Part shown: positions 31,701 through 59,562 of the stretch, piece after piece
How the letters are laid out: the number at the start of each line of letters is the position of its first letter
Numbering within the stretch: position 1 is the first letter of the stretch
DNA from: a virus
Reading direction: 5' to 3' (one strand)
IMG/VR virus record: IMGVR_UViG_3300027843_000001
DNA length: 64,000 nt
Translations under genes and position numbers: made by a program
Notes under the pieces: model-generated
The model's input: only the letters and a program-made list of their open reading frames with translations
What the model was told of the DNA's origin: nothing
Databases searched by the model: none

Positions 31701-32234
31701 GAGTACAACGAAACGATAGGTTTCTATGAGCCTCTTAACAAATGGGTTGGTATGTTCTCCTTCATCCCCGAAAACTATGCAAGGTCAGGCCAAGTCATGC
31801 TTTCGTTTGAGAATGGGAATGCCCTAATGCACAATTCTGACGCCGTTGCAAGATGCACTTTCAACGGAGTTAAATATCCTCAAGTGGTCAATTGGTATAG
31901 CAATGACCGAGGAGGAGTTAAGAAGATATTCAGAGCTTTGAGAATAAATAGCAACGTAGCTTGGAGCATCGACAATGTAACGATAGAACCAGATGCTACA
32001 TACGCGAGAGGGATGCAGTCCAAAATAGATAAGAAGCTGTTTAAGCTAAAAGAAGGTCATTTTGAGGCCCATTACATGAGAAACATGCTTACTAAGAACG
32101 GAAGTGCTTCGATGCTGCAATTAGTTAATGGTGATGAACTAAGGGGCTACTTTGTGAAAAACGAGATGTCTAATACTTCGGACGATGAAGTATGGCTGCT
32201 AGATATAGAAGTGAATTACCAAGACAGCTTATAA
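28752..32234 (+). CDS. Tail stabilisation / muzzle protein (crAss-like, P22 gp10-like)
   Basis: About 1160 aa beta-rich; N-terminal GINTD...DYRLNC...NIKGN and YLIWTDG motifs; C-terminal YFDVY and WVGMFSFIPE. TATCTTTG box at 28729-28736 argues for a start at 28752. Confidence 0.7.
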   Translation: MIDIVQFSQSGINTDAAPELVPKGDSDYRLNCVISNKGRYGVITNIKGNEKITDISTWFPEGSNPTCIGSCLDESRDRIIFFVKSDTVNHAIFYLDVATRNLGLVLQASYLDFGDYVEANVVQDYLIWTDGVNEIREINYIRAYNYNNSVSTTYIYDAIDADTILLYKRPYNLPLYPVGNGSTSGKLRGKSFQFAVRLVYFDGQKSVLSQYSGLFWGDIFSSVNGKGDYTEGDAWDSIDLPIYLTYNDLEKCEILVRDNELSNWYLYDSVSGAEGNFIYNFDDSKLRQQVDQNDLIRPYDYIPKLNGHQEIIEKNRLCLGLVTEGFAPTNVDVSAGLNIVDVTDVLEGRVGSEWIQTDGNGDYHYFTYTGYYPQKSTFIFSLSVSCFSKVINDPWHIIGVPLADAATQNMTLTWQYNASPSTTVHDIMMYFHKQLLALFNNTWQAVYHLDLGNFGGYPDAIRINQHVVAIDPSKFNGLGYVLIRSANIYSFAPKRTAYPTVVPLDSYLGEITYYDRNMRYSTANRFATQIDTPKTVYKSALNFKIRIKNKPPLWAHYYSVGFSKRTKRGYYVQLKIKQGDDYFFGEDRLMRIRVQSLINSAHTLNPNCNIANYEYQDGDRIVIRECFYGSEYFILATSETEYYVQGQEYPQDDQSYKKDYSTNKAYLLDANGNKVYDTSSTFIIVPILDTTTFDGYEASWFGWFSIELYRPQKTTDKQFYYHDSICAIGNPGTPQNYHTGNIQNQNPNAPSATPAIFISNFADSYIKLRLCKYVFACYDSNHSDYHESSFYGFGQANFYDEHQKEKTYSERLRWGGKIVEESTINNVNKFFGLDFLDLRSKHGSINRLAESGDILTVLQDRKESSIYEGRTEMMNADGSGNVVANTSVLGTVNSRDEEYGTIFGQSVITINRSTYYFDVYSADVLRSSPNGAIPIGSRYGASKYFTTKSAQILADGIDNVSVLGGYDKTNEMYVLTFAFKLHPEYNETIGFYEPLNKWVGMFSFIPENYARSGQVMLSFENGNALMHNSDAVARCTFNGVKYPQVVNWYSNDRGGVKKIFRALRINSNVAWSIDNVTIEPDATYARGMQSKIDKKLFKLKEGHFEAHYMRNMLTKNGSASMLQLVNGDELRGYFVKNEMSNTSDDEVWLLDIEVNYQDSL

Positions 32235-32249
32235 GCTGTCTTGGTAATT
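32214..32249. repeat. Perfect 36-bp palindrome centred next to the stop codon
   Basis: aattaccaagacagctta|taagctgtcttggtaatt. Confidence 0.9.
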
Positions 32250-32328
32250 TAAGTTTTTGTTCGCAAATCCTTAAAATTTCGTGGTGTTTCATGCTGATAC
32301 TCAGATTGGTTTAGATATATAATAGTTA
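32248..32328 (+). mobile_element. Platform A: attI-like site plus integrase 5' stub (81 bp)
   Basis: Copy of 46042-46122; encodes MKHHEILRICEQKLK on the minus strand; ends at the GTTA junction of the first cassette. Confidence 0.85.
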
Positions 32329-32332
32329 TGCT

Positions 32333-32635
32333 TCATGCTAAAGAAGCCTCTGCGATAATTTGGTCTGATAATGAATAAACCATTCTTTTAGCAGTTAAAA
32401 AAAGACTTCCAAAATCATCGGGTTGCCTTTGTCTTAGTTTTGCAAAGAATTTCATATCGGTTTTTACTTTGTCCAAAAATTCAGTTATCCAACCAACAGA
32501 AGTATCTCCTTGTGGTGGTAAATTACCATCGTGCATTACCCTGTAAAGTTCCACGCTCATCCAACTGTCAGTTGATTCCCACACATTATGAGATTCATTT
32601 ATTGAGTATTTCTCAAATAATTCTTGTTTTGTCAT
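32333..32635 (-). CDS. Cassette A1 gene 2, hypothetical
   Basis: Probable start MTKQELFEKY directly after the upstream TAA. Confidence 0.7.
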   Translation of the reverse strand: MTKQELFEKYSINESHNVWESTDSWMSVELYRVMHDGNLPPQGDTSVGWITEFLDKVKTDMKFFAKLRQRQPDDFGSLFLTAKRMVYSLSDQIIAEASLA

Positions 32636-32636
32636 T

Positions 32637-32855
32637 TTAGTAAATGTTATTTTCAGGTGTTTCAAAATCTTGTCTTTGTTCCAATCTGTCAGCAGTATCA
32701 CGCAAATGTTTAATCATATCCTCTCTATTTGCCGTTGATATGTAATTTGCTACTGCTGGGTTTCCATAAGGAAAAACTAAAATAGTACAACCGAAATCTT
32801 TAGGTAAGAATTTAAGCACACTATCTGCCATTTTTTGCATTGCTATTTTACTCAT
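32637..32855 (-). CDS. Cassette A1 gene 1, hypothetical
   Basis: 72 aa with an AT-rich leader. Confidence 0.7.
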   Translation of the reverse strand: MSKIAMQKMADSVLKFLPKDFGCTILVFPYGNPAVANYISTANREDMIKHLRDTADRLEQRQDFETPENNIY

Positions 32856-32901
32856 TTATATTTAGTTTTAAATTTATAATTAATTGAAATAAAGCACGAA
32901 A

Positions 32902-33030
32902 GCATAACACAAGCTATAACCAATAAAGGTTTTAGTGGTTTATTTAGCGTTGTAGCTCGCATCCAGTTCAGTATCGTTTGATAGCGCATCGTACCGTAAT
33001 CCTTTACTGGTCATAGCTTCAACGTTATAA
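32902..33030 (+). mobile_element. attC-like site A1 (129 bp)
   Basis: GCATAAC-ACAAG-CTATAACCAATAAAGG ... CCTTTACTGGTCATAG-CTTCAAC-GTTATAA. Confidence 0.85.
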
Positions 33031-33101
33031 GCAAGGCGGGGAAGTGCTTCTATTTAAGGTCATCGGTAATTTGATGAAAAATAAAAGCCCCCGCCAGCAA
33101 A

Positions 33102-33551
33102 TTAAGGAATGACAATACAATCAATTCCAAGTTCAACAGCAATATCATATTCCTCTTTTACGCCTTCAATCATATTACCAATAAATATTGCTACACCGTT
33201 TGTTTTCTTAATGTTTTCTAACATTAGCCTTCTATCCCAAACCAAAGCATCGCCGTCTAATGTTGTGCCGTACCAGCAAACAATGTGTTCAGATACCTTT
33301 TCCAAAAAATCCCAAACAGTTAATGGAATATTTTTTTCAATCAAAGTCTTTTTTGGTAAAAAGCAATGATGCAAAACTGAACGAGGTTCATCGTATTCCA
33401 TTTGAACATCATCCATTTTGTAACTTCTTTCTGAAAAATCAAATTGCCCTTGGTATTTATCACTTTCAAGCCATTCGTTAAATTTTTTATCTACACTTTC
33501 AACCGTTTGGTTTTTAATTGTGAAATGCAGCGAAATATCATACTTTTTCAT
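33102..33551 (-). CDS. Cassette A2 gene, hypothetical
   Basis: Probable start MKKYDISL; cassette ends GTTATAAGC / GCTTATAAC are complementary. Confidence 0.7.
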   Translation of the reverse strand: MKKYDISLHFTIKNQTVESVDKKFNEWLESDKYQGQFDFSERSYKMDDVQMEYDEPRSVLHHCFLPKKTLIEKNIPLTVWDFLEKVSEHIVCWYGTTLDGDALVWDRRLMLENIKKTNGVAIFIGNMIEGVKEEYDIAVELGIDCIVIP

Positions 33552-33633
33552 ATCGTTATGGGTTTTACAACGCCCGCCCAAGGCTTTTATTTTTAGTGTT
33601 TCAATTCAAGTTTAGTAAGTAAAATCGCCCAGC

Positions 33634-33763
33634 TTATAACACGTGGTATAAAACAAAGCGGTTTTAGTGGTTCTCTAAGCGTTGTACCCCGTACCATTTT
33701 TCCCTGCATCGGGAAAATGGTTTCTCCGCTCTCCGCTTCGATTTCATACCACAGCCGTTAGCT
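33634..33763 (+). mobile_element. attC-like site A2 (130 bp)
   Basis: TTATAAC-ACGTG-GTATAAAACAAAGCGG ... CCGCTTCGATTTCATAC-CACAGCC-GTTAGCT. Confidence 0.85.
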
Positions 33764-33770
33764 GCCATTC

Positions 33771-33841
33771 CTCAACAAATAAAGGTATTAATACCCGAAT
33801 AAAAAATATGTTATGCAGCACATAAAATTGGTATATTTGCA
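33771..33841 (+). promoter_or_regulatory. Promoter block (ATGTT-N4-AGCA motif plus TATATTTG)
   Basis: Related to the blocks at 48851-48917 and 52491-52557; precedes the ORF at 33864. Confidence 0.65.
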
Positions 33842-33863
33842 TAAACATTAATCCATTAGAACT

Positions 33864-45285: not shown

Positions 45286-46086
45286 TCATAAAGGTAAAGC
45301 AATTTTTTGAAGCAACGCCGTTGATACATGCGTGTAAATCTCCGTTGTTTTACCGCTAGAATGCCCAGCCATTTTTTGAATAATCCGCAAATCCGTTCCG
45401 CTCTCTAAAAGGCTAGTAAAGCATGAATGCCTAAGTATATGGAAATGACTGTGACTATCAATATACTTTTTAAAAATTTTCTGACAACTACCTACAGAAT
45501 ATTTTGGTTCAAACTGGCCATTAAAAAGATATTCCTTAGGCTTAAACTGCCGATAATATTCACGGAGCAATAGCAGAATGTTTTCCGATAATGGCACGAT
45601 CCTATCTTTGCGGCCTTTACCATTCTTAATAGTTATCAGCATACGTTTGCTGTCAATATCTGTGAGTTTAAGATTAACCACTTCACTTACACGCAGTCCG
45701 ACCGAAAACGCAAGCGACAGAATTGCCCTATGCTTTATGTTTTCAATTTTGTTTATCTGGTTTATAATAAAGTTTTTATCAATAACTTGCGGAAGATGCC
45801 GCTCACTACGCGGACGCTCAAACGAAACCTTATCATACTTCTTATCCAGTACCTTTTCATAAAGGAACTTGATGGCATTAATGACTTGGTTTTGTTGCGA
45901 AATGGACGTGAACTTGAAAGCATCCAAATAAGTTTGAAAGTCCGCAGCAACAATATGCTGCGGGTATTTATCCACCTTTTCGAGAAATTTAATAATATAG
46001 TGCGAGTACATGTCTCGCGTCCTCGGCGAGTAGTTTAAGTATTTAAACTTTTGTTCGCAAATCCTTAAAATTTCGTGGTGTTTCAT
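45286..46086 (-). CDS. Tyrosine recombinase, integron-integrase-like
   Basis: Catalytic R (GLRVSE), K (GKGRKDR), HxxR (HILRHS), H (AGHSS) and Y (IYTHV); N-terminal SAM-like domain (NYSPRT...YSHYI, QNQVINAIKFLYE). Confidence 0.95.
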   Translation of the reverse strand: MKHHEILRICEQKFKYLNYSPRTRDMYSHYIIKFLEKVDKYPQHIVAADFQTYLDAFKFTSISQQNQVINAIKFLYEKVLDKKYDKVSFERPRSERHLPQVIDKNFIINQINKIENIKHRAILSLAFSVGLRVSEVVNLKLTDIDSKRMLITIKNGKGRKDRIVPLSENILLLLREYYRQFKPKEYLFNGQFEPKYSVGSCQKIFKKYIDSHSHFHILRHSCFTSLLESGTDLRIIQKMAGHSSGKTTEIYTHVSTALLQKIALPL

Positions 46087-46122
46087 GTTGATAATCAGAT
46101 GGGTTCAGATATATAATAGTTA
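46042..46122 (+). mobile_element. Platform B: attI-like site overlapping the integrase 5' end
   Basis: ...cagatatataataGTTAGCAAC; the first cassette junction is 33 nt from the integrase ATG. Confidence 0.85.
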
Positions 46123-46410
46123 GCAACAATTGTCTAAGACGGTTTTCCAGTCGATAGATTTTCCGCAATATGGGCAGAAATTAAATCTATGAATGTATCC
46201 CTTTCTACCATCGACAATTTGTTTTGCTGTTAATGGCTCGCCTTTTAATAATCCATATTTTTTTAGCTCTGGCTGCAATTTTACAACATCTTCAACCTGT
46301 CTTTTTATGTCGGAAAGTTTTATATCTTCTCCGCTCAAAAATCCGATGAAACAATCACAACTGTTGCTAACACTATGTATAAGCGATTTGAGTTTTACTG
46401 CGCTTGTCAT
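46120..46410 (-). CDS. Cassette B1 gene, small protein with CPYCG zinc-finger-like motif
   Basis: ATG lies inside the attC B1 loop; the TAA is the complement of the junction TTA. Confidence 0.65.
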   Translation of the reverse strand: MTSAVKLKSLIHSVSNSCDCFIGFLSGEDIKLSDIKRQVEDVVKLQPELKKYGLLKGEPLTAKQIVDGRKGYIHRFNFCPYCGKSIDWKTVLDNCC

Positions 46411-46492
46411 ATCCTGTGATTTTTATAAAATTATTACTGTGATATAGTTTGCGGCTTCTAATCCCAAACCGCTCATACATTTTTCGTTAGCC
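46365..46492 (+). mobile_element. attC-like site B1 (128 bp)
   Basis: TGCTAAC-ACTAT-GTATAAGCGATTTG ... CAAACCGCTCATAC-ATTTTTC-GTTAGCC. Confidence 0.85.
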
Positions 46493-46497
46493 ACAAT

Positions 46498-47121
46498 TTA
46501 GTCAATACCCAAAAAGAAGGCTCCGAGTTCACCCGAAGATATCTCTTCCTCTTTTTTAGGTTCTGATTGATTTTCTTGTGGTTGTTTAGGTTCTTCCTTT
46601 GGTGTGTTTTGAATAGCTTCAAATAGTTTCTTCATTTCACCAAGGCACATTGTAAAACCTTTTTTGTAATACCTAAACGCACGGCTCATTGAGCTTGCAG
46701 GATAAGTAATTTTATTTATCATTAATTGCCTTTTTGCAAGGTCAATAAACGTGGTTTCTCCGAGGTATATTTTTTCATGGTCAACAGCAAACATTGAAAC
46801 AGTAAAATCAAACGCCTCAATCGTTGTTTGCGGGTCTGCAAAAAACTTCTTTACAAGGTCGTAAGTACATTCTTTATATTTCATCTTGCAGCCGTTATTG
46901 CTTTCCCATTTTATTTCGCAGTCTTTTGCTTTAAAATATGTACGTGCCTTTTCGTACTCTATTTCATTTGGGAAAAACATATCGTAATCAGTTTTTACAG
47001 GCACACCCATAAAGTAATCACGTAAAGCACCGCCAGCAAGCCAACATTTTATATCAGCTTCTTTCATTTCGTTTAAAATAATCTTGCCATATCTTTGAAC
47101 GGCATTTTCAAATTGAATCAT
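46498..47121 (-). CDS. Cassette B2 gene: nucleotidyltransferase (CCA-adding / poly(A) polymerase head-like)
   Basis: LAGGALRD...DYDMFF and FDFTVSMFA motifs; probable start MIQFEN. Confidence 0.75.
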   Translation of the reverse strand: MIQFENAVQRYGKIILNEMKEADIKCWLAGGALRDYFMGVPVKTDYDMFFPNEIEYEKARTYFKAKDCEIKWESNNGCKMKYKECTYDLVKKFFADPQTTIEAFDFTVSMFAVDHEKIYLGETTFIDLAKRQLMINKITYPASSMSRAFRYYKKGFTMCLGEMKKLFEAIQNTPKEEPKQPQENQSEPKKEEEISSGELGAFFLGID

Positions 47122-47157
47122 ATCGTTTGTTATTAATAGTTTAAAAATAAAAACTGT

Positions 47158-47289
47158 GGCTAACACGGGCTCATACGCAACTGGGGTTTAAGTAGTTACG
47201 TCAAATGTACATCTTTTTTTTTACTTTGGTGTATGTTGAAAATTTAGTAGCTCCGATTCCCCAGCTGCGCATAGCCCCATCCGTTAGTG
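47158..47289 (+). mobile_element. attC-like site B2 (132 bp)
   Basis: GGCTAAC-ACGGG-CTCATACGCAACTGGGG ... CCCCAGCTGCGCATAG-CCCCATCC-GTTAGTG; unpaired C in the left arm. Confidence 0.88.
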
Positions 47290-47338
47290 GCAAGCGGAAG
47301 AACTGCTCCGATTGAACGTCCGTGCATTGGTAATTAAG

Positions 47339-47665
47339 TTACTTGTTTAAAACATTTGAAAGGAATCCGTGAAGAATTGGGTCGTTGTCAAATATTTCCA
47401 AGTCTTTGCCCGTAAACGAACTTCTTATTGTTGCTTCAATCGCAATCTTATTGTCATTATCAGCATTATTCCATTCATGGTGGTATTTAGCTAATTGCTG
47501 GCGTTTACCATCGTAGTAGCTTTGTGTTTGCTCAAATACCTCACGCCTTGCGTTTTCTTTACGTACACCCCAAAAGCGTGTACCAAATATTTCAAACTCG
47601 TTAGCTGCAAAAATCAAAGCAAATAAGCCAATAATTGAAGCAATTGTTATTAGTGCTATTTTCAC
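47339..47665 (-). CDS. Cassette B3 gene 2, membrane-anchored hypothetical
   Basis: N-terminal TM helix; 108 aa. Confidence 0.7.
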   Translation of the reverse strand: MKIALITIASIIGLFALIFAANEFEIFGTRFWGVRKENARREVFEQTQSYYDGKRQQLAKYHHEWNNADNDNKIAIEATIRSSFTGKDLEIFDNDPILHGFLSNVLNK

Positions 47666-47667
47666 GG

Positions 47668-48180
47668 CTATTGTAATTTAAAAGGTGAAACCAATACTTT
47701 AGGCTCAATATATACGGGTCTGGGCTGGTTATCATTTGGGTCAATCATCATTAACCAAGTTCCCTCAGCACTCGAAGGCATAAACAACCCGTTTGGGTCT
47801 GCTTGCGGCCTAACTGCACATCCTCGTTCTGAAATGCCAGGAGTTTCTAAAGTCATTGGGTTTGTGTATTGGGTTGCATAAGGTATACCATATCCGATAC
47901 ATTTACCTAAAAATACGGGCTCTCCAGTCATTTCAGGTACTATGTAAGCATAACAAATTAAGTTTTCTTGGTCACGTAGTTCTAAAATCATTTTCATAAG
48001 CTTGCGTTCCTGAAAGTTCTTAATTGCTGGCATTCCTACCTGTGCATTAGCCTCTTTCATTAAAACTTCTTGTTTTGCGGCTAATACATCATTAGTTGTT
48101 GGTTGTTGGTCACAACTCGAATTACTCATAAGTAGCATCATTATAGCTACTAAACTAAAAATTGAAATAGCTTTTTTCAT
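47668..48180 (-). CDS. Cassette B3 gene 1, lipoprotein-like hypothetical
   Basis: Signal peptide ending NSSC; CIGYGIPYATQYTNP and QADPNGLF motifs. Confidence 0.75.
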   Translation of the reverse strand: MKKAISIFSLVAIMMLLMSNSSCDQQPTTNDVLAAKQEVLMKEANAQVGMPAIKNFQERKLMKMILELRDQENLICYAYIVPEMTGEPVFLGKCIGYGIPYATQYTNPMTLETPGISERGCAVRPQADPNGLFMPSSAEGTWLMMIDPNDNQPRPVYIEPKVLVSPFKLQ

Positions 48181-48233
48181 TTTGTTTGTTTTAAATTATT
48201 AATATATAGTAAATTATAAATAAAATGCACTGG

Positions 48234-48324
48234 TACTAACACCGTATATAAAACATAGCCAGATAGTTTACTGCTTAATTGCAAGGCTTGTGCATGGCTA
48301 CGTTTCATATAAGAACCGTTGTGC
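48234..48324 (+). mobile_element. attC-like site B3 (91 bp)
   Basis: TACTAAC-ACCGT-ATATAAAACATAGCC ... GGCTACGTTTCATAT-AAGAACC-GTTGTGC. Confidence 0.85.
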
Positions 48325-48328
48325 GCAA

Positions 48329-48541
48329 TTAACCCAACTCCCAATATTCGATAGCTCTTTCTTTTCCTGTTGTATTCAAAAATTCAGTTTCTCCAAAATG
48401 AGAAATAACTTCTTCGATAGAGAAATGCTCGAGAATTTCCGATATACTTGCGCTATCAGCTTCTATTCTTACTTCACTTTTTCCATTTGGCTCAATTGTA
48501 CAATTTGAAGCTGAAAAACTTAAATCTACTTCTTCATTCAT
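48329..48541 (-). CDS. Cassette B4 gene, acidic hypothetical
   Basis: 70 aa; cassette ends GTTGTGCG / CGCACAAC are complementary. Confidence 0.7.
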   Translation of the reverse strand: MNEEVDLSFSASNCTIEPNGKSEVRIEADSASISEILEHFSIEEVISHFGETEFLNTTGKERAIEYWELG

Positions 48542-48587
48542 AATATTATATTTAATTTATTAACAATGATTTACAAACAATAACTAC

Positions 48588-48690
48588 GCACAACAAGCGG
48601 TCATAAAACAAAGCGGGTTAAGTGCAATTTACAAGTTCATTAACTCGCTCGTAGTTCGGTATCGGCGGATAGTTTCACAGCCCGTTCACC
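48588..48690 (+). mobile_element. Truncated attC-like site B4 (left arm only)
   Basis: GCACAAC-AAGCG-GTCATAAAACAAAGCGGG; complementarity stops after CCCG at about 48684. Confidence 0.65.
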
Positions 48691-48823
48691 GTACTCGGCC
48701 ATTACTCGGAACGAATATGTTATATTTCGTGGTACTCTTGTCCTTGCACCCTACGCTAGAAACTAACGCCAACCTAAAGCGCAGACAAATTGCTGCTGTA
48801 CTGATTAAATTTTTACGTTTCAT
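48686..48823 (-). CDS. 45-aa ORF, possible truncated lipoprotein
   Basis: Manual translation MKRKNLISTAAICLRFRLALVSSVGCKDKSTTKYNIFVPSNGRVR. Confidence 0.3.
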   Translation of the reverse strand: MKRKNLISTAAICLRFRLALVSSVGCKDKSTTKYNIFVPSNGRVR

Positions 48824-48850: not shown

Positions 48851-48917
48851 CAACAAATTAACTTATTAATCCTCATATAAAAAATATGTTAGAAAGCATA
48901 AAAATTATACCTTTGCA
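48851..48917 (+). promoter_or_regulatory. 67-bp promoter block, repeated at 52491-52557
   Basis: caacaaattaact...atataaaaaatatgttagaaagcataaaaattaTACCTTTGca. Confidence 0.75.
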
Positions 48918-48938
48918 ATACACAATATTATAGGCGCT

Positions 48939-51017: not shown

Positions 51018-51098
51018 TTTAAGTTTTTGTTCGCAAATCTTTAAAATTTCGTAGCGTTTCGTGCTGATACTTAGATTGGTTTAGATATGTAATAGTTA
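51018..51098 (+). mobile_element. Platform C: attI-like site plus integrase stub (start codon ATG changed to ACG)
   Basis: 81-bp copy, 6 mismatches to platform A. Confidence 0.85.
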
Positions 51099-51121
51099 TA
51101 TGCAAGGCTAAGACCGTGCAT

Positions 51122-51952
51122 TTAATCAACATTTGTGGGTTCATCCGTAAAAGAAAAAAGCCCACGCTCTTTTGCTTTTTCAAAGCAATTAGGGTTTATG
51201 TCGCAACCTATAAAGTTTCGTTTCAAATCTTTGCATACTTCGGCAGTTGTAAAACTTCCAGAATAAAAGTCTGCAACTAAATCTCCTTCATTGCTACTTG
51301 CTTTAATAATTCGCTCAATTAATGCTTTTGGTTTTTGGGTATCATATCCAAGTCTTTCAGAGTTAGTCGGCCCCAAATTATTCAATTCCCAAACATCATC
51401 AATAGGTGTTGAATCTTGTATTTTATAAACAACATCACCATTTTCGTCCCTTTTCATTACCTTTTTACCATCTTTCACATCTACTTTATTTTTCTTTCTT
51501 GGTGTCTCTAATGGCAATCTTAATTCATTAAATATTATTTTGTCAGTTTTGCCATAAAATATAAGTATATCGTGGTTTTTAGCAAACGCCTTTTGCTTTA
51601 TACTCCATTTATTGTAACTCCAAATAACCTCATTCACAAAATTATCGTATCCAAATATGTCATCCATTATACACCTAATCCAATGGTTTATTTTGGTATC
51701 CATTTGTAAATAAATACTTCCTGTTGGTTTCAATATTCGGTGCATTTCTTTTATTCGTGGTATATAGTGGCTTTCAATTTCACTTCTTATGGGTTTCAAA
51801 TCTTGGTAGTCTTTAAACTTCCTGCCAGTTCCATAAAGTATATCACAATAAATTAAGTCTATCGTGTTATCTTTAATTTCTGCCATCAATTCTAAATTGT
51901 CGCAAATTCTAAGGTCTAAAAAACCATCCCCATTTTTTTCTTTTACTATCAT
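51122..51952 (-). CDS. Cassette C1 gene: DNA methyltransferase (N6-A/N4-C, beta-type order)
   Basis: IYCDILYGTG, LKPTGSIY, NEVIW, YDTQKPKALIERII and ADFYSGSFTT motifs. Confidence 0.9.
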   Translation of the reverse strand: MIVKEKNGDGFLDLRICDNLELMAEIKDNTIDLIYCDILYGTGRKFKDYQDLKPIRSEIESHYIPRIKEMHRILKPTGSIYLQMDTKINHWIRCIMDDIFGYDNFVNEVIWSYNKWSIKQKAFAKNHDILIFYGKTDKIIFNELRLPLETPRKKNKVDVKDGKKVMKRDENGDVVYKIQDSTPIDDVWELNNLGPTNSERLGYDTQKPKALIERIIKASSNEGDLVADFYSGSFTTAEVCKDLKRNFIGCDINPNCFEKAKERGLFSFTDEPTNVD

Positions 51953-51993
51953 TTATTCATTTAATTAAGTTTCTACTAATTTTACCGCCCAGC

Positions 51994-52093
51994 ATATAAC
52001 ACGTTGTATATGTCAGTTTTGCCAATTGGCTTTCGTGCTTTGAATAGGAATGTGTGCGTGGCAAAACCGAACACATACAACCATCCGTTAGCG
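51994..52093 (+). mobile_element. attC-like site C1 (100 bp)
   Basis: ATATAAC-ACGTT-GTATATGTCAGTTTTGCC ... GGCAAAACCGAACACATAC-AACCATCC-GTTAGCG. Confidence 0.85.
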
Positions 52094-52402
52094 GGCATTG
52101 TAATGAACACAGCCGAACCAACTTTTAGTTGAATATTCAAATCCTAATCCATCATGAACACATATAGGATATGATTGCATTCCAGTTTTTTCAGTATCAG
52201 GGTATTCTTCTTTTGGATATGTTTTCCCCGTTATTTCAGTTCCATTTTCAATCCATTTTCCAGAAAGTATTAAGCATTCGCCCATATCTTTTGAATATTC
52301 GGATTCTTCTTTTTTATTCCAATTTTTACATGATAAACAACGACCCGCTAACACACGGTTAGCGCAATTGCCGTTTTTGTGGTTATTCGTAGTTTCTACC
52401 AT
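52088..52402 (-). CDS. Cassette C2 gene, Cys-containing hypothetical
   Basis: ATG inside the attC C2 loop; CLSCKNW and FGCVHY motifs; stop codon in the junction. Confidence 0.7.
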   Translation of the reverse strand: MVETTNNHKNGNCANRVLAGRCLSCKNWNKKEESEYSKDMGECLILSGKWIENGTEITGKTYPKEEYPDTEKTGMQSYPICVHDGLGFEYSTKSWFGCVHYNAR

Positions 52403-52476
52403 TTTATTAAGTTTTTAGTAAATTGATAATTAAGTTCTTTTTAGTCGGCAACTTCGCTAACCGTCAGCCGTTATCG
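52346..52476 (+). mobile_element. attC-like site C2 (131 bp)
   Basis: CGCTAAC-ACACG-GTTAGCGCAATTGCCG ... CGGCAACTTCGCTAAC-CGTCAGCC-GTTATCG. Confidence 0.85.
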
Positions 52477-52490
52477 CTCCTGTAATTACT

Positions 52491-52557
52491 CAACAAATTA
52501 ACTCGTTAATACACATATAAAAAATATGTTAGAAAGCATAAAAATTATACCTTTGCA
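52491..52557 (+). promoter_or_regulatory. 67-bp promoter block, repeat of 48851-48917
   Basis: Nearly identical copy; TACCTTTG at 52548-52555. Confidence 0.75.
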
Positions 52558-52559
52558 GT

Positions 52560-53240
52560 ATGAACTTAGACTCTATACTAAATACGGTCAGAACCATTAT
52601 TAACCAAGTAAGCCCTTCCTTACAGCTTACGGAGGATATGTTTTCGGACGTGTGCCAATTGGTCAACCTGGATTACTTCAAGTTGTGGTGCGGACTTCCG
52701 GAAGACTGGGCACCGGGGCAGCCGGTTTCCCGAAGGGGCTGGCAGGTGTCGAGCCAAAACACGGAAGCACTCAAGACGTTCTTAGTTGACGAGGCTACGT
52801 ACTCTGTCACCATAGCCGGTAAGTTGACATACCCCGCCAACTTTGTCCATATTGATCTTATAAAGTTCAACTACCAAGGCACTGAAATATCGGTCACAGA
52901 AAAGGATCATCAGGAAATAGGGAACTTACTTAAAAGCCCTATTCTTGCACCTACTTCGCAATACCCCATTTTCACCTATTACGGGGCTTACCTTCAATTT
53001 TATCCTAAGGATTTAGCCAATGTAACGATGAGCTACTTCCGGCTTCCTACGACCCCGAAATATGTCATAAAGGAGGAGAACGGGGTCAACGTATACGACC
53101 CTGATAATTCAGTTCAATTCGAATGGCCGGAGGCTTACCACAATGACTTGGTTAAAATGATTCTCTCCTATTTGGGCATAAGCTCAAAGGATGTCAATGT
53201 GGCTAATTACGCAGAAAGTGTTAAGGCTAAAGGGGCTTAA
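52560..53240 (+). CDS. Tail ring / connector protein, paralog of 48939-49688
   Basis: Shared N- and C-terminal motifs, and YFRLPTTP vs YLKLPSIP. Confidence 0.65.
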   Translation: MNLDSILNTVRTIINQVSPSLQLTEDMFSDVCQLVNLDYFKLWCGLPEDWAPGQPVSRRGWQVSSQNTEALKTFLVDEATYSVTIAGKLTYPANFVHIDLIKFNYQGTEISVTEKDHQEIGNLLKSPILAPTSQYPIFTYYGAYLQFYPKDLANVTMSYFRLPTTPKYVIKEENGVNVYDPDNSVQFEWPEAYHNDLVKMILSYLGISSKDVNVANYAESVKAKGA

Positions 53241-53718: not shown

Positions 53719-53799
53719 TTTAAGTTTTTGTTCGCAAATCCTTAAAATTTCGTAGTGTTTCATGCTGATACTCAGATCGGTTTAGATATATAATAGTTA
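53719..53799 (+). mobile_element. Platform D: attI-like site plus integrase stub
   Basis: 81 bp, 2 mismatches to platform A. Confidence 0.88.
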
Positions 53800-53806
53800 T
53801 ATGAAA

Positions 53807-53992
53807 TTATTCAATCCACCGCCTAACAACTTCAAACTCATTGTTATTAGTCCAGCATTTCAAATAATCTCTTTCTAACAATATTTCAACTAATGAACTT
53901 ATTTCAAAGTCATCTAAATCAACTGTAATTTCAAACTGCTTATATTTTAAGCTTCCTGTATTTACTTTTATTTCATAATGTATGTTAATCAT
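53807..53992 (-). CDS. Cassette D1 gene, hypothetical
   Basis: Probable start MINIHY; cassette ends GTTATATG / CATATAAC. Confidence 0.6.
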   Translation of the reverse strand: MINIHYEIKVNTGSLKYKQFEITVDLDDFEISSLVEILLERDYLKCWTNNNEFEVVRRWIE

Positions 53993-54011
53993 ATATTTAA
54001 ATATAAACCTC

Positions 54012-54142
54012 ATATAACATCGGCTCATATTTCATAAGGGTTTAAGTGCGATGTGTAACTTTTCCCCTCGTAGGTAATTATTTGTAATTTGACAGGCTTG
54101 TGCTTCGATTACCCTTACGAAACATAGCCGTGTTCGTTAGCC
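54012..54142 (+). mobile_element. attC-like site D1 (131 bp)
   Basis: ATATAAC-ATCGG-CTCATATTTCATAAGGG ... CCCTTACGAAACATAG-CCGTGTTC-GTTAGCC. Confidence 0.88.
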
Positions 54143-54850
54143 ACCATATACAAACAGCCTTTCGACAGTTTTGTAAGTTAATGTGGTATTCATTGAATTT
54201 GTTACTTCTTTCGACCAAACACAAATAAAGTCATTTGGTGCTTGATATTCGGAAATAAATACTTTATGTCCTTGATTTGTCATATCTCTACACCATCCCC
54301 AAAATTTATTATGGTTAAAGTTTTTTGAAGTTGCATATTGTTTTGTGTTTTGGTACGGAATGTCGCAATAAATTATAGAATTTTCAAATAGTTCAATGTC
54401 AGAATAGTTTCCACTTATAAATATTGCACCTTTTAAAAATTCAACTTGTTTTAATGTATTTCTAATTTGTTCATCAACATAATCCCTTGTTGCTGTTTTA
54501 CCTGAATATCCACCATCGAAAAACCTACCATTAAAAGAAGCCATCCACCCAATCCACCCAATCATAAAATCGTCAAATTCTATGTTAGTCCCATTATTAT
54601 ATTCTGATCTTGCTTTTGAATATAACTCTTTCGATATTTCCATTGGTTTATCTCTATTTTCTTGCAATCCTTTCCACATTGCAATCAAATATTTGTTTTT
54701 ATCAATAGCAATCCTATTTCCAGAAACTTTGTCAAATGTTCCTAAACCACCACAAAACGGCTCAATATAGTATTGATTATCTTTTCTGTCTTTTAATATA
54801 ATCGGAAGTATTTCTTTTGCTATCCGATTTTTTGAACCCATGTATTTCAT
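54137..54850 (-). CDS. Cassette D2 gene: Dam-like (D12 class) DNA adenine methyltransferase
   Basis: YMGSKNRIAK, YIEPFCGG, IYCDIPY and VFISEY motifs; stop codon in the junction. Confidence 0.9.
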   Translation of the reverse strand: MKYMGSKNRIAKEILPIILKDRKDNQYYIEPFCGGLGTFDKVSGNRIAIDKNKYLIAMWKGLQENRDKPMEISKELYSKARSEYNNGTNIEFDDFMIGWIGWMASFNGRFFDGGYSGKTATRDYVDEQIRNTLKQVEFLKGAIFISGNYSDIELFENSIIYCDIPYQNTKQYATSKNFNHNKFWGWCRDMTNQGHKVFISEYQAPNDFICVWSKEVTNSMNTTLTYKTVERLFVYGG

Positions 54851-54883
54851 TTATCTATATTTTAATTTATTACTAAATACGGT

Positions 54884-55014
54884 GGCTAACAATGTGTAGC
54901 ACCAATAAGGGTTTTACTGCAAATTTTAAGCGTTGTAGTCCGCTTGTTGGTCGGTATAGTTTGATAGGTTTGAACTCCGCAATCCCTTACTTGTGCTACA
55001 CTCGTCCGTTATAA
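54884..55014 (+). mobile_element. attC-like site D2 (131 bp)
   Basis: GGCTAAC-AATGT-GTAGCACCAATAAGGG ... CCCTTACTTGTGCTAC-ACTCGTCC-GTTATAA. Confidence 0.88.
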
Positions 55015-55060
55015 CCAATGCAAGAACGCTCCTTGGATAGTTCCTGCATTAGATTAAAGT

Positions 55061-55540
55061 TTACTCTTTCAAAAGAAGTTTAGCAACATCTTCTTTTAAC
55101 ATTCCGTTTTCGTGCAATTTTGCTACAATTTGAGAAGCAAAAAGCATATCGTAACGGTCTTTAAGCTCTTTTGATATTTTATCAGAAGTTTTTGTCGTTT
55201 GAGAGTTTAAAAAATCTCTCAATTTGTTTTCGCTTAATTGCGTTCTTTCCAATTCTTCTGTTATCCATTCGGAAATAGAAATCATGTCATTGGAATTGTA
55301 ACGCTTTTTAACTTTGGCGTTTACAACAAGCTCATTTAAGGCACTTATTATAAATTGCTCCTTTTGCTTTTCAATTTCCGCAATCACGGCACTATTAAAT
55401 TCAGCACCTATTTTTGCTTTCCAATCGGCTAAAATTTGTTGCCTTACATTATAGGCAATTGCACTTTTAATTTGCTCCGAAAAAGAGCTTTCGTCTTCTG
55501 AATAAAAATCAGATAAATCTACTGTTACATTAATTTTCAT
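55061..55540 (-). CDS. Cassette D3 gene, helical hypothetical
   Basis: 159 aa; cassette ends GTTATAACCA / TGGTTATAAC. Confidence 0.75.
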   Translation of the reverse strand: MKINVTVDLSDFYSEDESSFSEQIKSAIAYNVRQQILADWKAKIGAEFNSAVIAEIEKQKEQFIISALNELVVNAKVKKRYNSNDMISISEWITEELERTQLSENKLRDFLNSQTTKTSDKISKELKDRYDMLFASQIVAKLHENGMLKEDVAKLLLKE

Positions 55541-55586
55541 TTCTTTAAGTATTTAGTTATTAATAATTTAAAATAAAATGCACTGG

Positions 55587-55717
55587 TTATAACACACGCT
55601 CATACGTAACGTTGGTTTTAGTGCCTATTTTATGCGGTCTGCTTCTAATTTAGTTCGGTAACGTGGGATAAGTAACCGCTTCGAAATCCCACGCTACGCA
55701 TAGCGGAAACGTTAAAT
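55587..55717 (+). mobile_element. attC-like site D3 (131 bp)
   Basis: TTATAAC-ACACG-CTCATACGTAACGTTGG ... CCACGCTACGCATAG-CGGAAAC-GTTAAAT. Confidence 0.85.
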
Positions 55718-56097: not shown

Positions 56098-56306
56098 GCT
56101 TTCTCAAAATAAATTCTTAAGTCATAATGAATCCCGACATAATCCCAATTAAAGAAGCAAGTCTCTTTTGGTATAGGGTACTCTTGGAATCCGTAAACAG
56201 CCAAATCGCGTTTCAAATGGTCAAAGTTAAGGTAATCCTTAGATAACTCCCGGCCATTGCCGTATCGCTTTGTATCCAGTTTGGCATAATAAAAATTTTT
56301 CTCCAT
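56094..56306 (-). CDS. Hypothetical protein
   Basis: 70 aa; AAAGCCATG start context. Confidence 0.6.
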   Translation of the reverse strand: MEKNFYYAKLDTKRYGNGRELSKDYLNFDHLKRDLAVYGFQEYPIPKETCFFNWDYVGIHYDLRIYFEKA

Positions 56307-56333
56307 GGCTTTATTTATAATTTGTTTGCGTTA

Positions 56334-56690
56334 TTACAGCATTTGACCTTCGTGAGCGTTACCTAGTATAACATAACGTTCTGATTCAAATGAGTCGTTT
56401 AAGAATTGTTGGCCCCTAGATATTTCCGGATGCGGGTTACCAATAATTTTTATCCGGTTAGCAATTAATACGTAGCCCCTCCACTATATGAGGTATATAA
56501 CTGTCCCAGTCACAAGGTATTCTTTGTAAGGGTCTCTGCTACGCCCATCATACCCATCATAGTAATGATTATTCATTATTAGGGTCTCTGTAATAGCTGT
56601 GTAATCCCCCTCCCGCATAAGTTGGCCGTTCTTATCCTCGAAGGATGTTAAAAACAGGTGCCTACTGCTATCTAATTCTTTTTTCTCCAT
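56334..56690 (-). pseudogene. YopX-like gene interrupted by an in-frame TAG (56484-56486)
   Basis: FEDKNGQLMREGD before the TAG; the frame stays open for 49 codons after it and ends VILGNAHEGQML (YopX C-terminal IGNIHE-like). Confidence 0.7.
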
Positions 56691-56698
56691 GACTTTAT

Positions 56699-56938
56699 TT
56701 ATCTGTATTTTATTTTCAACATTAAAACATAATTCTCTACGCTCTTAAGCAAATCTGATTCGCTGCCCGGTACAAACTGCTTACCGTGCAAAGAACTCAA
56801 TGCTATTCTGTAGTACCTGAGGGCTTTTATTTCATCCCTCAGGCCGGTACCATTATCCGACAATGCTTTTTTATCTAATTGGGTTATGAACTTTGTCAGA
56901 TCATTTATGAATTTTTCTTTGTAGGTCATAGGTTCCAA
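56699..56938 (-). CDS. Hypothetical protein
   Basis: 79 aa ORF in the early operon. Confidence 0.6.
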   Translation of the reverse strand: MEPMTYKEKFINDLTKFITQLDKKALSDNGTGLRDEIKALRYYRIALSSLHGKQFVPGSESDLLKSVENYVLMLKIKYR

Positions 56939-57129
56939 CTTTTTATTTCTTTGACCATCCTTACGGAATCTTTACGGAATACCATAATAAAGGAATCCTT
57001 TTTCAACTTGTTGCATGACCCCTCAAGATAGCCATTTGTATAGATATACATTACGTTCGTTAATGCTAAATTCGATATTCGCGTACAGGATACGAGCGAT
57101 AAGGCAGCCATTGCTATAATCGTTTTCAT
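56926..57129 (-). CDS. Small lipoprotein-like protein
   Basis: Probable start MKTIIAMAALSLVSC. Confidence 0.55.
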   Translation of the reverse strand: MKTIIAMAALSLVSCTRISNLALTNVMYIYTNGYLEGSCNKLKKDSFIMVFRKDSVRMVKEIKSWNL

Positions 57130-57130
57130 A

Positions 57131-57325
57131 CTACCTACAATTAAATTCATCGTTTATGGGCATTGCGAAGCAAGTGGAAAACCTGCCCTCCCAGAACCGG
57201 CCATTGTGCGAAAACTTAGGCGGCTTTTGGGGCTTATCGGTAGAGGCAACATAGTGATGACCCTTTTCATCAATGGCCATTAGTGTCTGGCCAGATTTTG
57301 ATAACTCAAAAGTAAGTTTTTCCAT
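57131..57325 (-). CDS. Hypothetical protein
   Basis: 64 aa, directly after the platform E stub. Confidence 0.6.
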   Translation of the reverse strand: MEKLTFELSKSGQTLMAIDEKGHHYVASTDKPQKPPKFSHNGRFWEGRFSTCFAMPINDEFNCR

Positions 57326-57348
57326 GACGTTTTTATTTTAGTTTGTTG

Positions 57349-57410
57349 ATCCTTAAATTTTCGTGGTGTTTCATGCTGATACGCAGATTGGTTTAGATAT
57401 ATAATAGTTA
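57349..57410 (+). mobile_element. Platform E: attI-like site plus shortened integrase stub
   Basis: atccttaaattttcgtggtgtttcatgctgatacgcagattggtttagatatataataGTTA. Confidence 0.82.
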
Positions 57411-57417
57411 TGTGGCA

Positions 57418-57852
57418 TTAAAAGATCCACGCTTTGATAATTTCGTAAAGATTTAATTTTAAGTGATACGAATTAATTATTACGAACACGCCAAATACTA
57501 ATCCTACAACCGAATTTAACCAGTGTAATACCGTATATGCTGGGCTAAATTTAAACAGCTTACTTATTGGAGCTATTACAATAAAATTAAAAGCAATAAT
57601 TGAAACAAAGGCAACCCAATTAAATGTCAATAGTCCTGCAAACATCCATAAAGCAAATATTAAACTTGGCAGTCCTCGACTAATTAAAATGTCTTTATAA
57701 TCTTGTGGGTATTCATCCCACTTTTTGCCTTTATTTTGTTTCGTGAGTTCTTTGAATTTCTTTGATTTTTCAGTGTATTCAACTGGGCTTATTAGCCAAA
57801 GAACTTCATGTATTATAAAGCAAATTCCGATAAAATAAAAAATGTGTTTCAT
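57418..57852 (-). CDS. Cassette E1 gene, multi-pass membrane protein
   Basis: Probable start MKHIFYF; about four hydrophobic segments; cassette ends GTTATGTGGC / GCCACATAAC. Confidence 0.75.
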   Translation of the reverse strand: MKHIFYFIGICFIIHEVLWLISPVEYTEKSKKFKELTKQNKGKKWDEYPQDYKDILISRGLPSLIFALWMFAGLLTFNWVAFVSIIAFNFIVIAPISKLFKFSPAYTVLHWLNSVVGLVFGVFVIINSYHLKLNLYEIIKAWIF

Positions 57853-57893
57853 TGTTATAATTTTTAAGTTATTAATATTCAATAATTAACGCC

Positions 57894-58023
57894 ACATAAC
57901 ACGCGGTCATACGTAACTGGGACTTAATCAGTATGCGAGGCATGTAGCTCGTATTGTCGTTTGGTGTAAGTTGATAGTTCGTAGCTTCGATTACCTCAGC
58001 TACGCATACCGCAATCGTTAGCC
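57894..58023 (+). mobile_element. attC-like site E1 (130 bp)
   Basis: ACATAAC-ACGCG-GTCATACGTAACTGGG ... CTCAGCTACGCATAC-CGCAATC-GTTAGCC. Confidence 0.85.
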
Positions 58024-58028
58024 TAAAA

Positions 58029-58205
58029 TTATCGCTCCGATTTCAGTTTGTTCTTTAGCCTTTTAATTAGTTTCCTATAGTACCTTCTTTCTAAATAAGG
58101 CGCTATTATGTAAATGTAAAGGGCTATGCAGACACAAGCTACACCAATGAGTAGCCCGATAAGGACTACGACCGCGAAGAACAGCCAAATTATAAAATCT
58201 GTCAT
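58029..58205 (-). CDS. 58-aa single-TM protein
   Basis: Manual translation MTDFIIWLFFAVVVLIGLLIG...RKLIKRLKNKLKSER; ATGA overlap with the upstream gene. Confidence 0.6.
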   Translation of the reverse strand: MTDFIIWLFFAVVVLIGLLIGVACVCIALYIYIIAPYLERRYYRKLIKRLKNKLKSER

Positions 58206-58423
58206 TTGTATTCGATTAAAGGTTTGTCACTAAAGGCTATTACTTCACCCTGCGATAATTTTCTGTAAATATCGGCTATTGTCATGGAGTCAATATATAA
58301 TTTTTTGGTGTCTCCAGGGGTGTATCTGTCGTCTTCAATCTCCATTAAGGCCAGTATGACATCGGAAAAAGATGCCCGGCCTTTTTGGTAATTGTCAAAT
58401 ATACGTACGATTTTTTTCTCCAT
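58202..58423 (-). CDS. Hypothetical protein
   Basis: 73 aa early gene. Confidence 0.6.
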   Translation of the reverse strand: MEKKIVRIFDNYQKGRASFSDVILALMEIEDDRYTPGDTKKLYIDSMTIADIYRKLSQGEVIAFSDKPLIEYK

Positions 58424-58489
58424 GGCTTTATATATTAAATTGTGGTGCCATTATGCGTATTTGCACGAATTCATGCCCTACGCAGTTGT

Positions 58490-58777
58490 TTAAAAGTTAA
58501 GTACTGGAATACTCTTACCTATTTCTGTGCCTTCAAACGGCCTGTATCTGGGTATAGGCAAGCCGTTTTTAGTGAAGGTAAGATAATTGTATAGCCTTAA
58601 TTTTGCTTCGTACCGTGTGTCTATGAACACGGTTTTGGTTTGAACCAAACGAAAAGCTCCGGGTCTGTCGGGAACGGGTTCCCATGTTTGGATGTTGCGC
58701 AATGATGGTTCCGTGTTAGTCTCCGTTACCTGACGCGTTTTATCACAAATCGTTGTGTACTTATATGGTTTCTTCAT
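58490..58777 (-). CDS. Hypothetical protein
   Basis: 95 aa early gene. Confidence 0.6.
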   Translation of the reverse strand: MKKPYKYTTICDKTRQVTETNTEPSLRNIQTWEPVPDRPGAFRLVQTKTVFIDTRYEAKLRLYNYLTFTKNGLPIPRYRPFEGTEIGKSIPVLNF

Positions 58778-58781
58778 GGCT

Positions 58782-59354
58782 TTATATAGGATAATATATC
58801 CCGTCTGTTAAGATTTTCATATTACCTTCTATGAAAGCAAAGGTTTTAAAAGATTTTTCCTGTATCAAATACAATCCCATATTTGTTGGTTTGTATCCGA
58901 TTACTTTCTCCTTCGTCATTGCTTCTATTTCTTCAATAAAAGATCTAAATTTACTGCTTTCTTTAAGATGACTCGTTGTTTTAACTTCAAAAAAGTCTAA
59001 CATCTTTTGCAAGTCATTTCTCGCGGCATCTAAATTTTTAGTATAGCCTTTTATAGGGACGTTGTATTCTGCTTGGCCGTTATTCTGGAACGTTGGTATT
59101 TCGTTTTTGGTTTTCTTAGATCTAATAATTGTGTCCGTATCCTTTACTACTAGTATCCTGTTATATTCTAACTTGGTATTACCAGAATAATTGCGATGTA
59201 TTTTAATACTGCCATCCGTCAAACCCTTTTCTATGCGGTTTAACTCCTTAGCTCTGCGTTTAAGTTCGTTAATTATCTCAATATTTTGCCTGTCAAAATT
59301 GTATTCTGCTTTGTCGGTATTCTGGAACGTAGGTATTTCGTTTTTTGTCTTCAT
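58782..59354 (-). CDS. Hypothetical protein with duplicated N-terminal motif
   Basis: KTKNEIPTFQNxxxAEYN occurs twice. Confidence 0.65.
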   Translation of the reverse strand: MKTKNEIPTFQNTDKAEYNFDRQNIEIINELKRRAKELNRIEKGLTDGSIKIHRNYSGNTKLEYNRILVVKDTDTIIRSKKTKNEIPTFQNNGQAEYNVPIKGYTKNLDAARNDLQKMLDFFEVKTTSHLKESSKFRSFIEEIEAMTKEKVIGYKPTNMGLYLIQEKSFKTFAFIEGNMKILTDGIYYPI

Positions 59355-59367
59355 GGCTTTATTTATT

Positions 59368-59562
59368 TTAATGAAAATTATAATGGTTAAGTATGTGCTT
59401 TACTTTCTCCGCTGGGTCAGTGTCTTCTTTTATAAGGCACCCGATGAACGGGCTACGCTCTTTGCCCCTGTAAATGTGGAGCGTTATATTATAGCTGGAA
59501 TCCGTTTCAAAGTTCTTGAGATCAAACCTGTAGCTTTTATTTTTGTACTGTATCCGTTTCAT
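59368..59562 (-). CDS. Hypothetical protein
   Basis: Probable start MKRIQYK in an ATGA overlap. Confidence 0.55.
   Translation of the reverse strand: MKRIQYKNKSYRFDLKNFETDSSYNITLHIYRGKERSPFIGCLIKEDTDPAEKVKHILNHYNFH

Follow-up and report, generated by a model that had tools for sequence, protein, structure and literature searches.

In integron biology, the I2 domain of the integrase is viewed as having co-evolved with the extrahelical bases of attC sites. I2 of IntI recognises these bases and blocks the second cleavage, and the origin of the pair has been described as a chicken-and-egg paradox (Escudero et al., PMC4792948). Clusters of attC sites without an integrase (CALINs) occur in phages, including a Polaribacter phage, with methyltransferases among their cargo, and IntI1 recombines some of these phage attC sites (Qi et al. 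2023, PMC9892861). In Bacteroidales, recombinase-associated acquired interbacterial defence arrays (rAID-1) have been described (Ross et al. 2019, bioRxiv 10.1101/471110; PMC12247911). They are defined operationally by a recombinase more than 44% identical to BF9343_RS08045, located at the 5' end and followed by at least two co-directional low-GC genes with conserved intergenic motifs (Ross et al. 2019), and the mechanism of rAID biogenesis was still called open in a 2025 preprint.

Here, we analysed a 64,000-nt stretch of viral DNA (the window), which covers almost the entire length of an IMG/VR virus record of 71,116 bp that CheckV rated as complete. With a probability of roughly 0.7, we propose from sequence comparisons that its int gene codes for a site-specific recombinase dedicated to an integron-like gene-cassette system in Bacteroidota-type phages. 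As in integrons and CALINs, int lies next to a fixed insertion site that is followed by an array of cassettes, and orphan DNA methyltransferases are found among the cargo. The cassettes end in an imperfect palindrome with AAC...GTT cores and a G|TT crossover and have a start complementary to their own end, and the folded site is predicted to consist of an R stem, an unpaired spacer and an L stem, with the bottom strand folding better, all as in integrons. Unlike integron integrases, Int has no IntI domain (53 versus 100 residues), scores below the IntI profile cut-offs and falls outside the IntI clade. The R stem of the sites is ~14-15 bp long instead of the 7 bp of classical attC and carries a fixed C·A (T·G) pair at position 11, the unpaired spacer of 5 x 2 nt also sets the sites apart from classical attC, the ORFs of the phage cassettes are inverted relative to attC and point to int, and the window phage has five attI platforms for a single int. 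With XerA, XerC and XerD, Int shares the two-domain architecture and the size class, and its best sequence and fold matches are the XerA structures 4a8e and 5hxy; however, it scores under all Xer cut-offs, lies outside the XerC/D clade, and is carried by phages and linked with cassette arrays instead of a dif site. Integron-type gene capture may therefore be able to proceed without the extra domain of IntI.

Int is a complete tyrosine recombinase without the IntI-specific insertion

The int ORF is open and encodes 266 aa in the window translation:

45286-46086, minus strand: int, a 266-aa simple tyrosine recombinase with a SAM-like N domain and a catalytic domain, without the IntI insertion

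Pfam matches covered residues 11-85 (PF13495, SAM-like N domain) and 110-255 (PF00589, catalytic domain), and int was the only PF00589 gene, and thus the only tyrosine recombinase, of the 71-kb phage. In a 73-sequence alignment, residues R132, K157/K160, H216, R219, H242 and Y251 were conserved in 19/19 members of the Int clade, and the catalytic set R-K-H-R-H/W-Y of tyrosine recombinases is complete in Int. Strong purifying selection acts on the protein.

Measured between the same residues in this alignment, the R162-H216 interval comprised 53 aa in all 19 phage-clade members, 58-59 aa in chromosomal relatives, 62-70 aa in XerC/D and 100 aa in 13/13 canonical IntI proteins. The extra sequence of IntI is made up of two blocks, one of 31 aa with a KYPNA-type motif just N-terminal of the YLF equivalent and one of ~10 aa after it, both of which aligned to gaps in the window Int. 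Comparison with VchIntIA (2a3v) matched Int residues 17-178 to chain positions 16-181 and residues 214-255 to 265-306; the alignment broke over IntIA 182-264, where 35 residues of Int face 83 of IntIA. With XerA (4a8e), Int was collinear from end to end of the match (20-261 versus 26-271). An AlphaFold2 model of Int (mean pLDDT 86) gave XerA and VchIntIA as best structural matches; in it, helices 168-181 and 198-208 are joined by a loop only, with no additional helix.

The original prediction described a protein of 266 aa with about 30 residues between YLF and HILRH that lacks the IntI-specific insertion. The length was exact, the gap between YLF (residues 186-188) and HILRH (216-220) measured 27 residues, and the absence of the insertion was borne out by the 53 versus 100 aa, by the break in the 2a3v alignment and by the model without an extra helix; the alignment revealed no segment equivalent to I2, both IntI blocks being gapped. 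The proposed position of the missing segment was only partly right: just the ~10-aa block belongs between YLF and HILRH, and the 31-aa block lies N-terminal of YLF.

Int belongs to a phage clade separate from IntI and XerC/D

Against the integron integrase model TIGR02249, Int reached 139.3 bits in two separate stretches (cut-off 265), and against NF011946 it reached 103.4 (cut-off 435). The best NCBIfam match was the archaeal XerA model NF040815 (170.4 bits; cut-off 220), and the XerD and XerC models gave ~133 bits each, far under their cut-offs (TIGR02225, 133.7, cut-off 329.6; TIGR02224, 132.9, cut-off 335). Tools that detect integrons by requiring the IntI domain overlook such systems, as had been anticipated for IntI-profile-based tools.

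The best PHROG matches of Int were 'integrase' families, and its nearest named relatives were integrases of Cellulophaga and Polaribacter phages with ~40% identity. Among thousands of relatives in a protein database, the best 120 were 263-348 aa long (most of them 263-270), showed 66-80% identity and were mostly either unnamed or annotated as XerD. IMG/VR contained 47 loci with Int relatives, many of them on contigs of 100-360 kb. In 185,579 species genomes (one per species), the best match had 58% identity and was located on a 30-kb MAG contig, and the remaining matches, mainly from Flavobacteriaceae, were at most 46% identical. Because close relatives are virtually absent from these genomes, the clade with 60-80% identity to Int is essentially phage-borne.

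An IQ-TREE phylogeny grouped the 266-aa phage proteins in a clade (support 100/95) separate from IntI and XerC/D, with supports of 100/99 for canonical IntI and 99/98 for XerC. The IntI set passed the TIGR02249 cut-off and consisted of one gammaproteobacterial sequence and 12 from the phylum of Polaribacter; the XerC/D sequences were taken from the genomes that supplied IntI. In the best tree, the phage clade was joined, weakly (78/37), to a chromosomal type from Flavobacteriaceae and Bacteroidales. This tree places the short-Int group outside the sampled IntI and not nested within them, and, being unrooted, leaves undecided whether the group is ancestral to IntI, Xer-derived or independent. 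The idea of a distinct recombinase clade, put forward on the basis of the protein alone, thus matches a phage clade that falls in neither IntI nor XerC.

Full-length canonical IntI (TIGR02249, 270-497 bits) was present in 113 of 401 sampled genomes of the Polaribacter phylum, more than expected. The chromosomal Int homologues of Flavobacteriaceae and Bacteroidales (loci L051-L116) had ORFs of ~385-540 aa (e.g. L068, 7640-8843; L057, 1337-2953), with an N-terminal extension of ~100 aa or longer that is missing from the 266-aa phage clade.

An attI-like block with the int 5' end is present in five copies

Five copies of a block of ~85 nt, composed of ~40 nt upstream of int and the first ~15 int codons, were found at 32.3, 46.1, 51.1, 53.8 and 57.4 kb, all in one orientation. 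The full int gene continues from the 46.1-kb copy only, and every copy ends ...TAATAG|TTA on the plus strand:

32248-32325, minus strand: attI and int 5' stub A, a repeat copy
46040-46122, minus strand: attI-like block of array B, comprising the motif, a leader of ~33 nt and the first ~15 int codons
51018-51095, minus strand: attI and int 5' stub C, with the ATG changed to ACG
53719-53796, minus strand: attI and int 5' stub D, a repeat copy
57343-57407, minus strand: attI and shorter int 5' stub E, a repeat copy

On the top strand, the attI motif of array B reads ...ATATATAATAG|TTA, with the crossover after G46119. Of the 42 related phage loci, whose Int proteins are just 55-70% identical, 36 carried the motif TAACTATNATATAT upstream of int, at 46-64 nt from its start. 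Synonymous conservation, calculated as identical codons among identical residues, was 0.81 for int codons 1-10 versus 0.37-0.62 for the rest of the gene. These patterns fit a function at the DNA level, i.e. an attI with accessory binding sites that would reach into the int ORF; translation-start constraints could contribute to the conservation of the 5' codons. Since a search of ±10 kb around int in 41 further phage loci gave no int stubs, the five-platform layout may be special to the window phage. At the 3' end of a 1166-aa plus-strand gene, a perfect 18+18-nt palindrome (32214-32249) directly abuts stub A on its inner side; it is probably a bidirectional terminator.

Each attI-like block is followed by an array of cassettes

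Twelve cassette units were delineated in five arrays, one to four per block copy:

32326-33757, minus strand: array A, with cassettes A1 (32326-33024) and A2 (33025-33757)
46120-48700, minus strand: array B, with cassettes B1 (46120-46486), B2 (46487-47283), B3 (47284-48318) and B4 (48319 to ~48700, right end approximate)
51096-52470, minus strand: array C, with cassettes C1 (51096-52087) and C2 (52088-52470)
53797-55711, minus strand: array D, with cassettes D1 (53797-54136), D2 (54137-55008) and D3 (55009-55711)
57408-58017, minus strand: array E, with the single cassette E1

Each unit has the form G|TTR-(10-12 nt)...minus-strand gene...(reverse complement of those 10-12 nt)-YAAC, after which a spacer, an inner arm, a loop, the other inner arm and a second spacer lead to the next G|TT. 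All ORFs of array B lie on the minus strand and are directed at int, and the single cassette E1 has a start complementary to its own end, with C·A at position 11. Among the cargo, C1 encodes an N6_N4 DNA methyltransferase, D2 a D12/Dam-type methyltransferase and B2 a nucleotidyltransferase-like protein; the remaining window cassettes matched no family. The GC content was 0.33-0.37 in the window arrays versus ~0.40-0.44 elsewhere. An Rfam scan of the window at gathering thresholds returned zero families, and a megablast search with 10 kb of the window gave no match in phage records.

At the distal ends of arrays A, B and C, a block of ~70 nt recurs (33773-33842, 48851-48920 and 52491-52560), which precedes the next plus-strand structural gene and ends TAccTTTG. 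The Bacteroidota -7 promoter consensus is TAnnTTTG, and the block probably restarts rightward transcription. Because of such TAnnTTTG-type promoter blocks, together with relatives in Flavobacteriia and Bacteroidales, a Bacteroidota host of the phage is plausible. Outside the arrays, the short motif TCTCCATGGCTTTATWTAT is repeated before several small minus-strand genes at 56291-59372 and may represent a translation-start or promoter region common to the genes of an early block.

Hairpin sites accumulate upstream of int and pair cassette ends with their own starts

Sites in related phage loci were collected with a home-made hairpin detector that required AAC and GTT 45-170 nt apart and an ungapped inner stem with at least 13/16 Watson-Crick pairs. 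It recovered about half of the 12 sites of the window and gave ~0.3 matches per 64 kb in the shuffled window. Two fold-based site finders were dropped as too noisy or too strict, with 1-12 matches in shuffles.

In the related phage loci, 147 sites were located in 215 kb upstream of int versus 13 in 329 kb downstream, corresponding to a ~17-fold higher density, and arrays comprised up to 17 sites. In 88 of 196 sites, the 10 nt that precede AAC were complementary, at 9/10 positions, to the 10 nt that follow an upstream GTT, compared to 1 of 176 in the downstream control; none of the 196 sites reached 10/10. A single mismatch at position 11 from the crossover was seen in 87 of the 88 and consisted of C opposite A in 85, which reads as a T·G wobble on the complementary strand. 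This predicted pairing of cassette ends with their own starts is the logic of a circular cassette. Together with the attI motif in 36/42 loci and the one-sided hairpin sites, it gives substance to the description of Int as cassette-associated in the original prediction. The AAC-to-GTT length was 80-89 nt in 54 and 120-129 nt in 78 of 190 sites (loci L002-L048 and the window), with few between.

Distant Int homologues in Flavobacteriaceae and Bacteroidales chromosomes also adjoin such arrays, in another layout: in Flavobacteriaceae, the arrays lie downstream of int and carry their genes on the top strand. The pairing of int and array thus survives rearrangement. No canonical IntI was detected in the phage or in four genomes bearing arrays next to a short int. 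Cellulophaga phage Ingeline, the int of which is ~41% identical, showed no clear array upstream of int and one weak site.

The bottom strand folds better irrespective of transcription direction

Folded in circular form, the bottom strands of the window sites were predicted to form an R stem of about 14-16 bp, an unpaired 5 x 2-nt spacer, an L stem of 18-20 bp and a variable tip; in several of these sites, the L stem has one bulged base at a depth of 5 bp. Of the two strands, the bottom one was predicted to be the more stable in 169/190 sites (p = 4e-25) and, upon circular-form folding, in 82 of 83. Phage and chromosomal sets differ in gene orientation:

Phage set: 78 cassettes; ORFs on the bottom strand in 58/58; int on the bottom strand; bottom strand more stable in 77/78
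Chromosomal set: 47 cassettes; ORFs on the top strand in 42/44; int on the top strand; bottom strand more stable in 46/47

The asymmetry in folding tracks the polarity of the site and not the direction of transcription, which favours a folded DNA strand over an mRNA structure. We infer that the substrate form of these sites is folded single-stranded DNA.

Cassettes occur in other metagenomes without the phage backbone

The phage was found in two wetland metagenomes from different studies, one of them probably the source. Biogas and landfill metagenomes contained cassette segments only (B2, C1, D3 and parts of others), with zero depth of the backbone over the structural genes between the arrays. 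As contigs and not reads were searched, these data speak to presence and breakpoints, not to frequencies. Cassettes have spread to other backgrounds. A 464-nt contig of the biogas metagenome X3 was identical to window positions 51095-51328 in 233/234 nt and diverged exactly at 51095, the predicted attI|C1 crossover; the X3 joint 48261->51095, one side of which spans just 26 nt, was read for the breakpoint at 51095 alone. Joints between repeat copies in contigs of the source metagenome were not counted as rearrangements, because they reflect ambiguities of the assembly graph where stubs and promoter blocks are repeated. Copies of B2, C1 and D3 (46385-47338, 51155-52108 and 54971-55447) with 88-99% identity were present in biogas, landfill and wastewater metagenomes without the backbone.

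A model for cassette recombination and its alternatives

In our model, a circular cassette would carry an imperfect palindrome of ~80-130 nt, the bottom strand of which would fold into an R stem of ~14-15 bp ending TAA|C with a T·G wobble at position 11, an asymmetric unpaired spacer of ~5 x 2 nt, an L stem of ~18-20 bp and a variable tip, and would thereby mimic a core recombination site. Int would cut the conserved AA|C / G|TT and swap a strand with the double-stranded attI-like site, which would start ~33-50 nt upstream of the int start codon and seemingly extend into the first ~10-15 codons. Through the four further attI copies, each with a dead int 5' stub, one enzyme would serve five platforms, and the junction would presumably be resolved by replication. 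Because Int has no I2 helix, the choice of strand and the silencing of the L-bound monomer would have to rest on other features; candidate substitutes for I2 are the length of the R stem, the fixed mismatch and a single base, 5 bp into the L stem, that is bulged in some sites. We infer that Int recombines these hairpin sites, and it may handle attC-like hairpins differently from IntI. An enzyme without I2 might, on the other hand, act only on double-stranded sites. The broader proposal, that I2-less Xer-like recombinases run true integron-type capture of single-stranded hairpins in Bacteroidota and their phages, with inverted polarity and either as a proto-integron or as an independent invention, is in our estimate an even bet.

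Because canonical IntI was frequent in the phylum sample (113/401 genomes above the cut-off), the main rival explanation is that a canonical host IntI with I2 moves genuine cassettes in trans, while the short Int is a passenger or acts on double-stranded attI copies only, e.g. by rearranging the five platforms. In E. coli, several attC sites from phages were indeed recombined as bottom strands by IntI1 (PMC9892861), and I2 is held to be necessary for the handling of attC (PMC4792948). We nevertheless consider an IntI acting in trans unlikely: canonical IntI is missing from the phage and from the four genomes with short-int arrays, the linkage of int, attI and array is kept in two architectures, and the site grammar, with its long R stem and C·A at position 11, is unlike that of classical attC. 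The strong purifying selection on the protein also argues against this rival.

An ordinary phage integrase or Xer-type resolvase, serving attP x attB lysogeny or dimer resolution next to unrelated morons with terminator hairpins, would agree with the PHROG 'integrase' matches, with the ~40% identity to Cellulophaga and Polaribacter phage integrases and with XerA as the nearest solved structure by sequence. It is hard to reconcile with an attI motif and one-sided hairpin arrays that recur in 36-40 loci, and with a strand asymmetry independent of transcription direction; terminators give no reason for a cassette's own start and end to be complementary to each other with a mismatch that is fixed. 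Many of the carriers are phage contigs of 100-360 kb, and close relatives are virtually absent from the 185,579 species genomes, contrary to what is expected of a prophage integrase. This role by itself is improbable, and a dual role of Int, in cassette recombination as well as in ordinary phage integration or resolution, is possible. Finally, it is very improbable that the hairpins are RNA elements (terminators or processing and translation signals) and that the repeats owe their spread to duplication or homologous recombination, with site-specific recombination playing no part: although the better-folding strand in the phage is the mRNA-sense strand, the bottom strand folds better in 46/47 chromosomal cassettes with genes on the opposite strand, the complementarity spans whole cassettes and is cassette-specific, and homology breaks at the exact junction in another metagenome.

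Relation to rAID-1 arrays and phage attC clusters

The proposed cassette system probably extends to a rAID-1-like locus of a Bacteroidales MAG (L057), which encodes a relative of the window Int with 39% identity inside the short-Int group. This locus shows the rAID-1 layout with co-directional low-GC downstream genes (GC 39% vs 33%), and it has ~123-nt sites and the same R-box grammar; the layout also fits the chromosomal relative L068. In the phage, low GC and conserved intergenic sites are present, but the cassettes, although co-directional with int, lie upstream of it. Unlike the phage system, rAID-1 arrays are chromosomal, with the recombinase at the 5' end and T6SS immunity genes as co-directional cargo, and their recombinases appear to be longer than the window Int, given the N-terminal extension of ~100 aa or more in chromosomal relatives. 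Judging by the layout and sites of L057, arrays of the rAID type are probably part of one broad system with the phage arrays. In literature of incomplete coverage, we found no published account of the cassette grammar or its fixed mismatch, of the strand asymmetry, or of a phage-borne int-attI-array unit, and a literature search for a Xer-like integron in Bacteroidota or phages gave only rAID-1 and CALIN reports.

The loci collected here represent a large natural family of I2-less recombinases tightly linked to attC-like, strand-asymmetric hairpin cassettes. If Int is active on these sites, hairpin cassettes can exist without I2, which opens the I2 paradox to direct testing. Were the proposed mechanism true, the I2 domain would not be required for recombination of single-stranded DNA hairpins, Bacteroidales rAID arrays would gain a mechanism, one class of phage attC clusters that appear 'integrase-less' (CALINs) would be explained, and phages would swap accessory genes such as orphan methyltransferases by cassette exchange.

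Cultured Flavobacteriia and their phages could serve as laboratory models, with a site of Polaribacter phage P12002L as a possible substrate. This cultured, integrase-less phage carries at least one ~122-nt site of the window's family, at 14503-14624, with C·A at position 11. The two P12002L attC sites of Qi et al. are shorter and are other sites, so that the IntI1 assay has no direct bearing on this family. The site at 14503-14624 bounds a 573-nt cassette around P12002L_0024.
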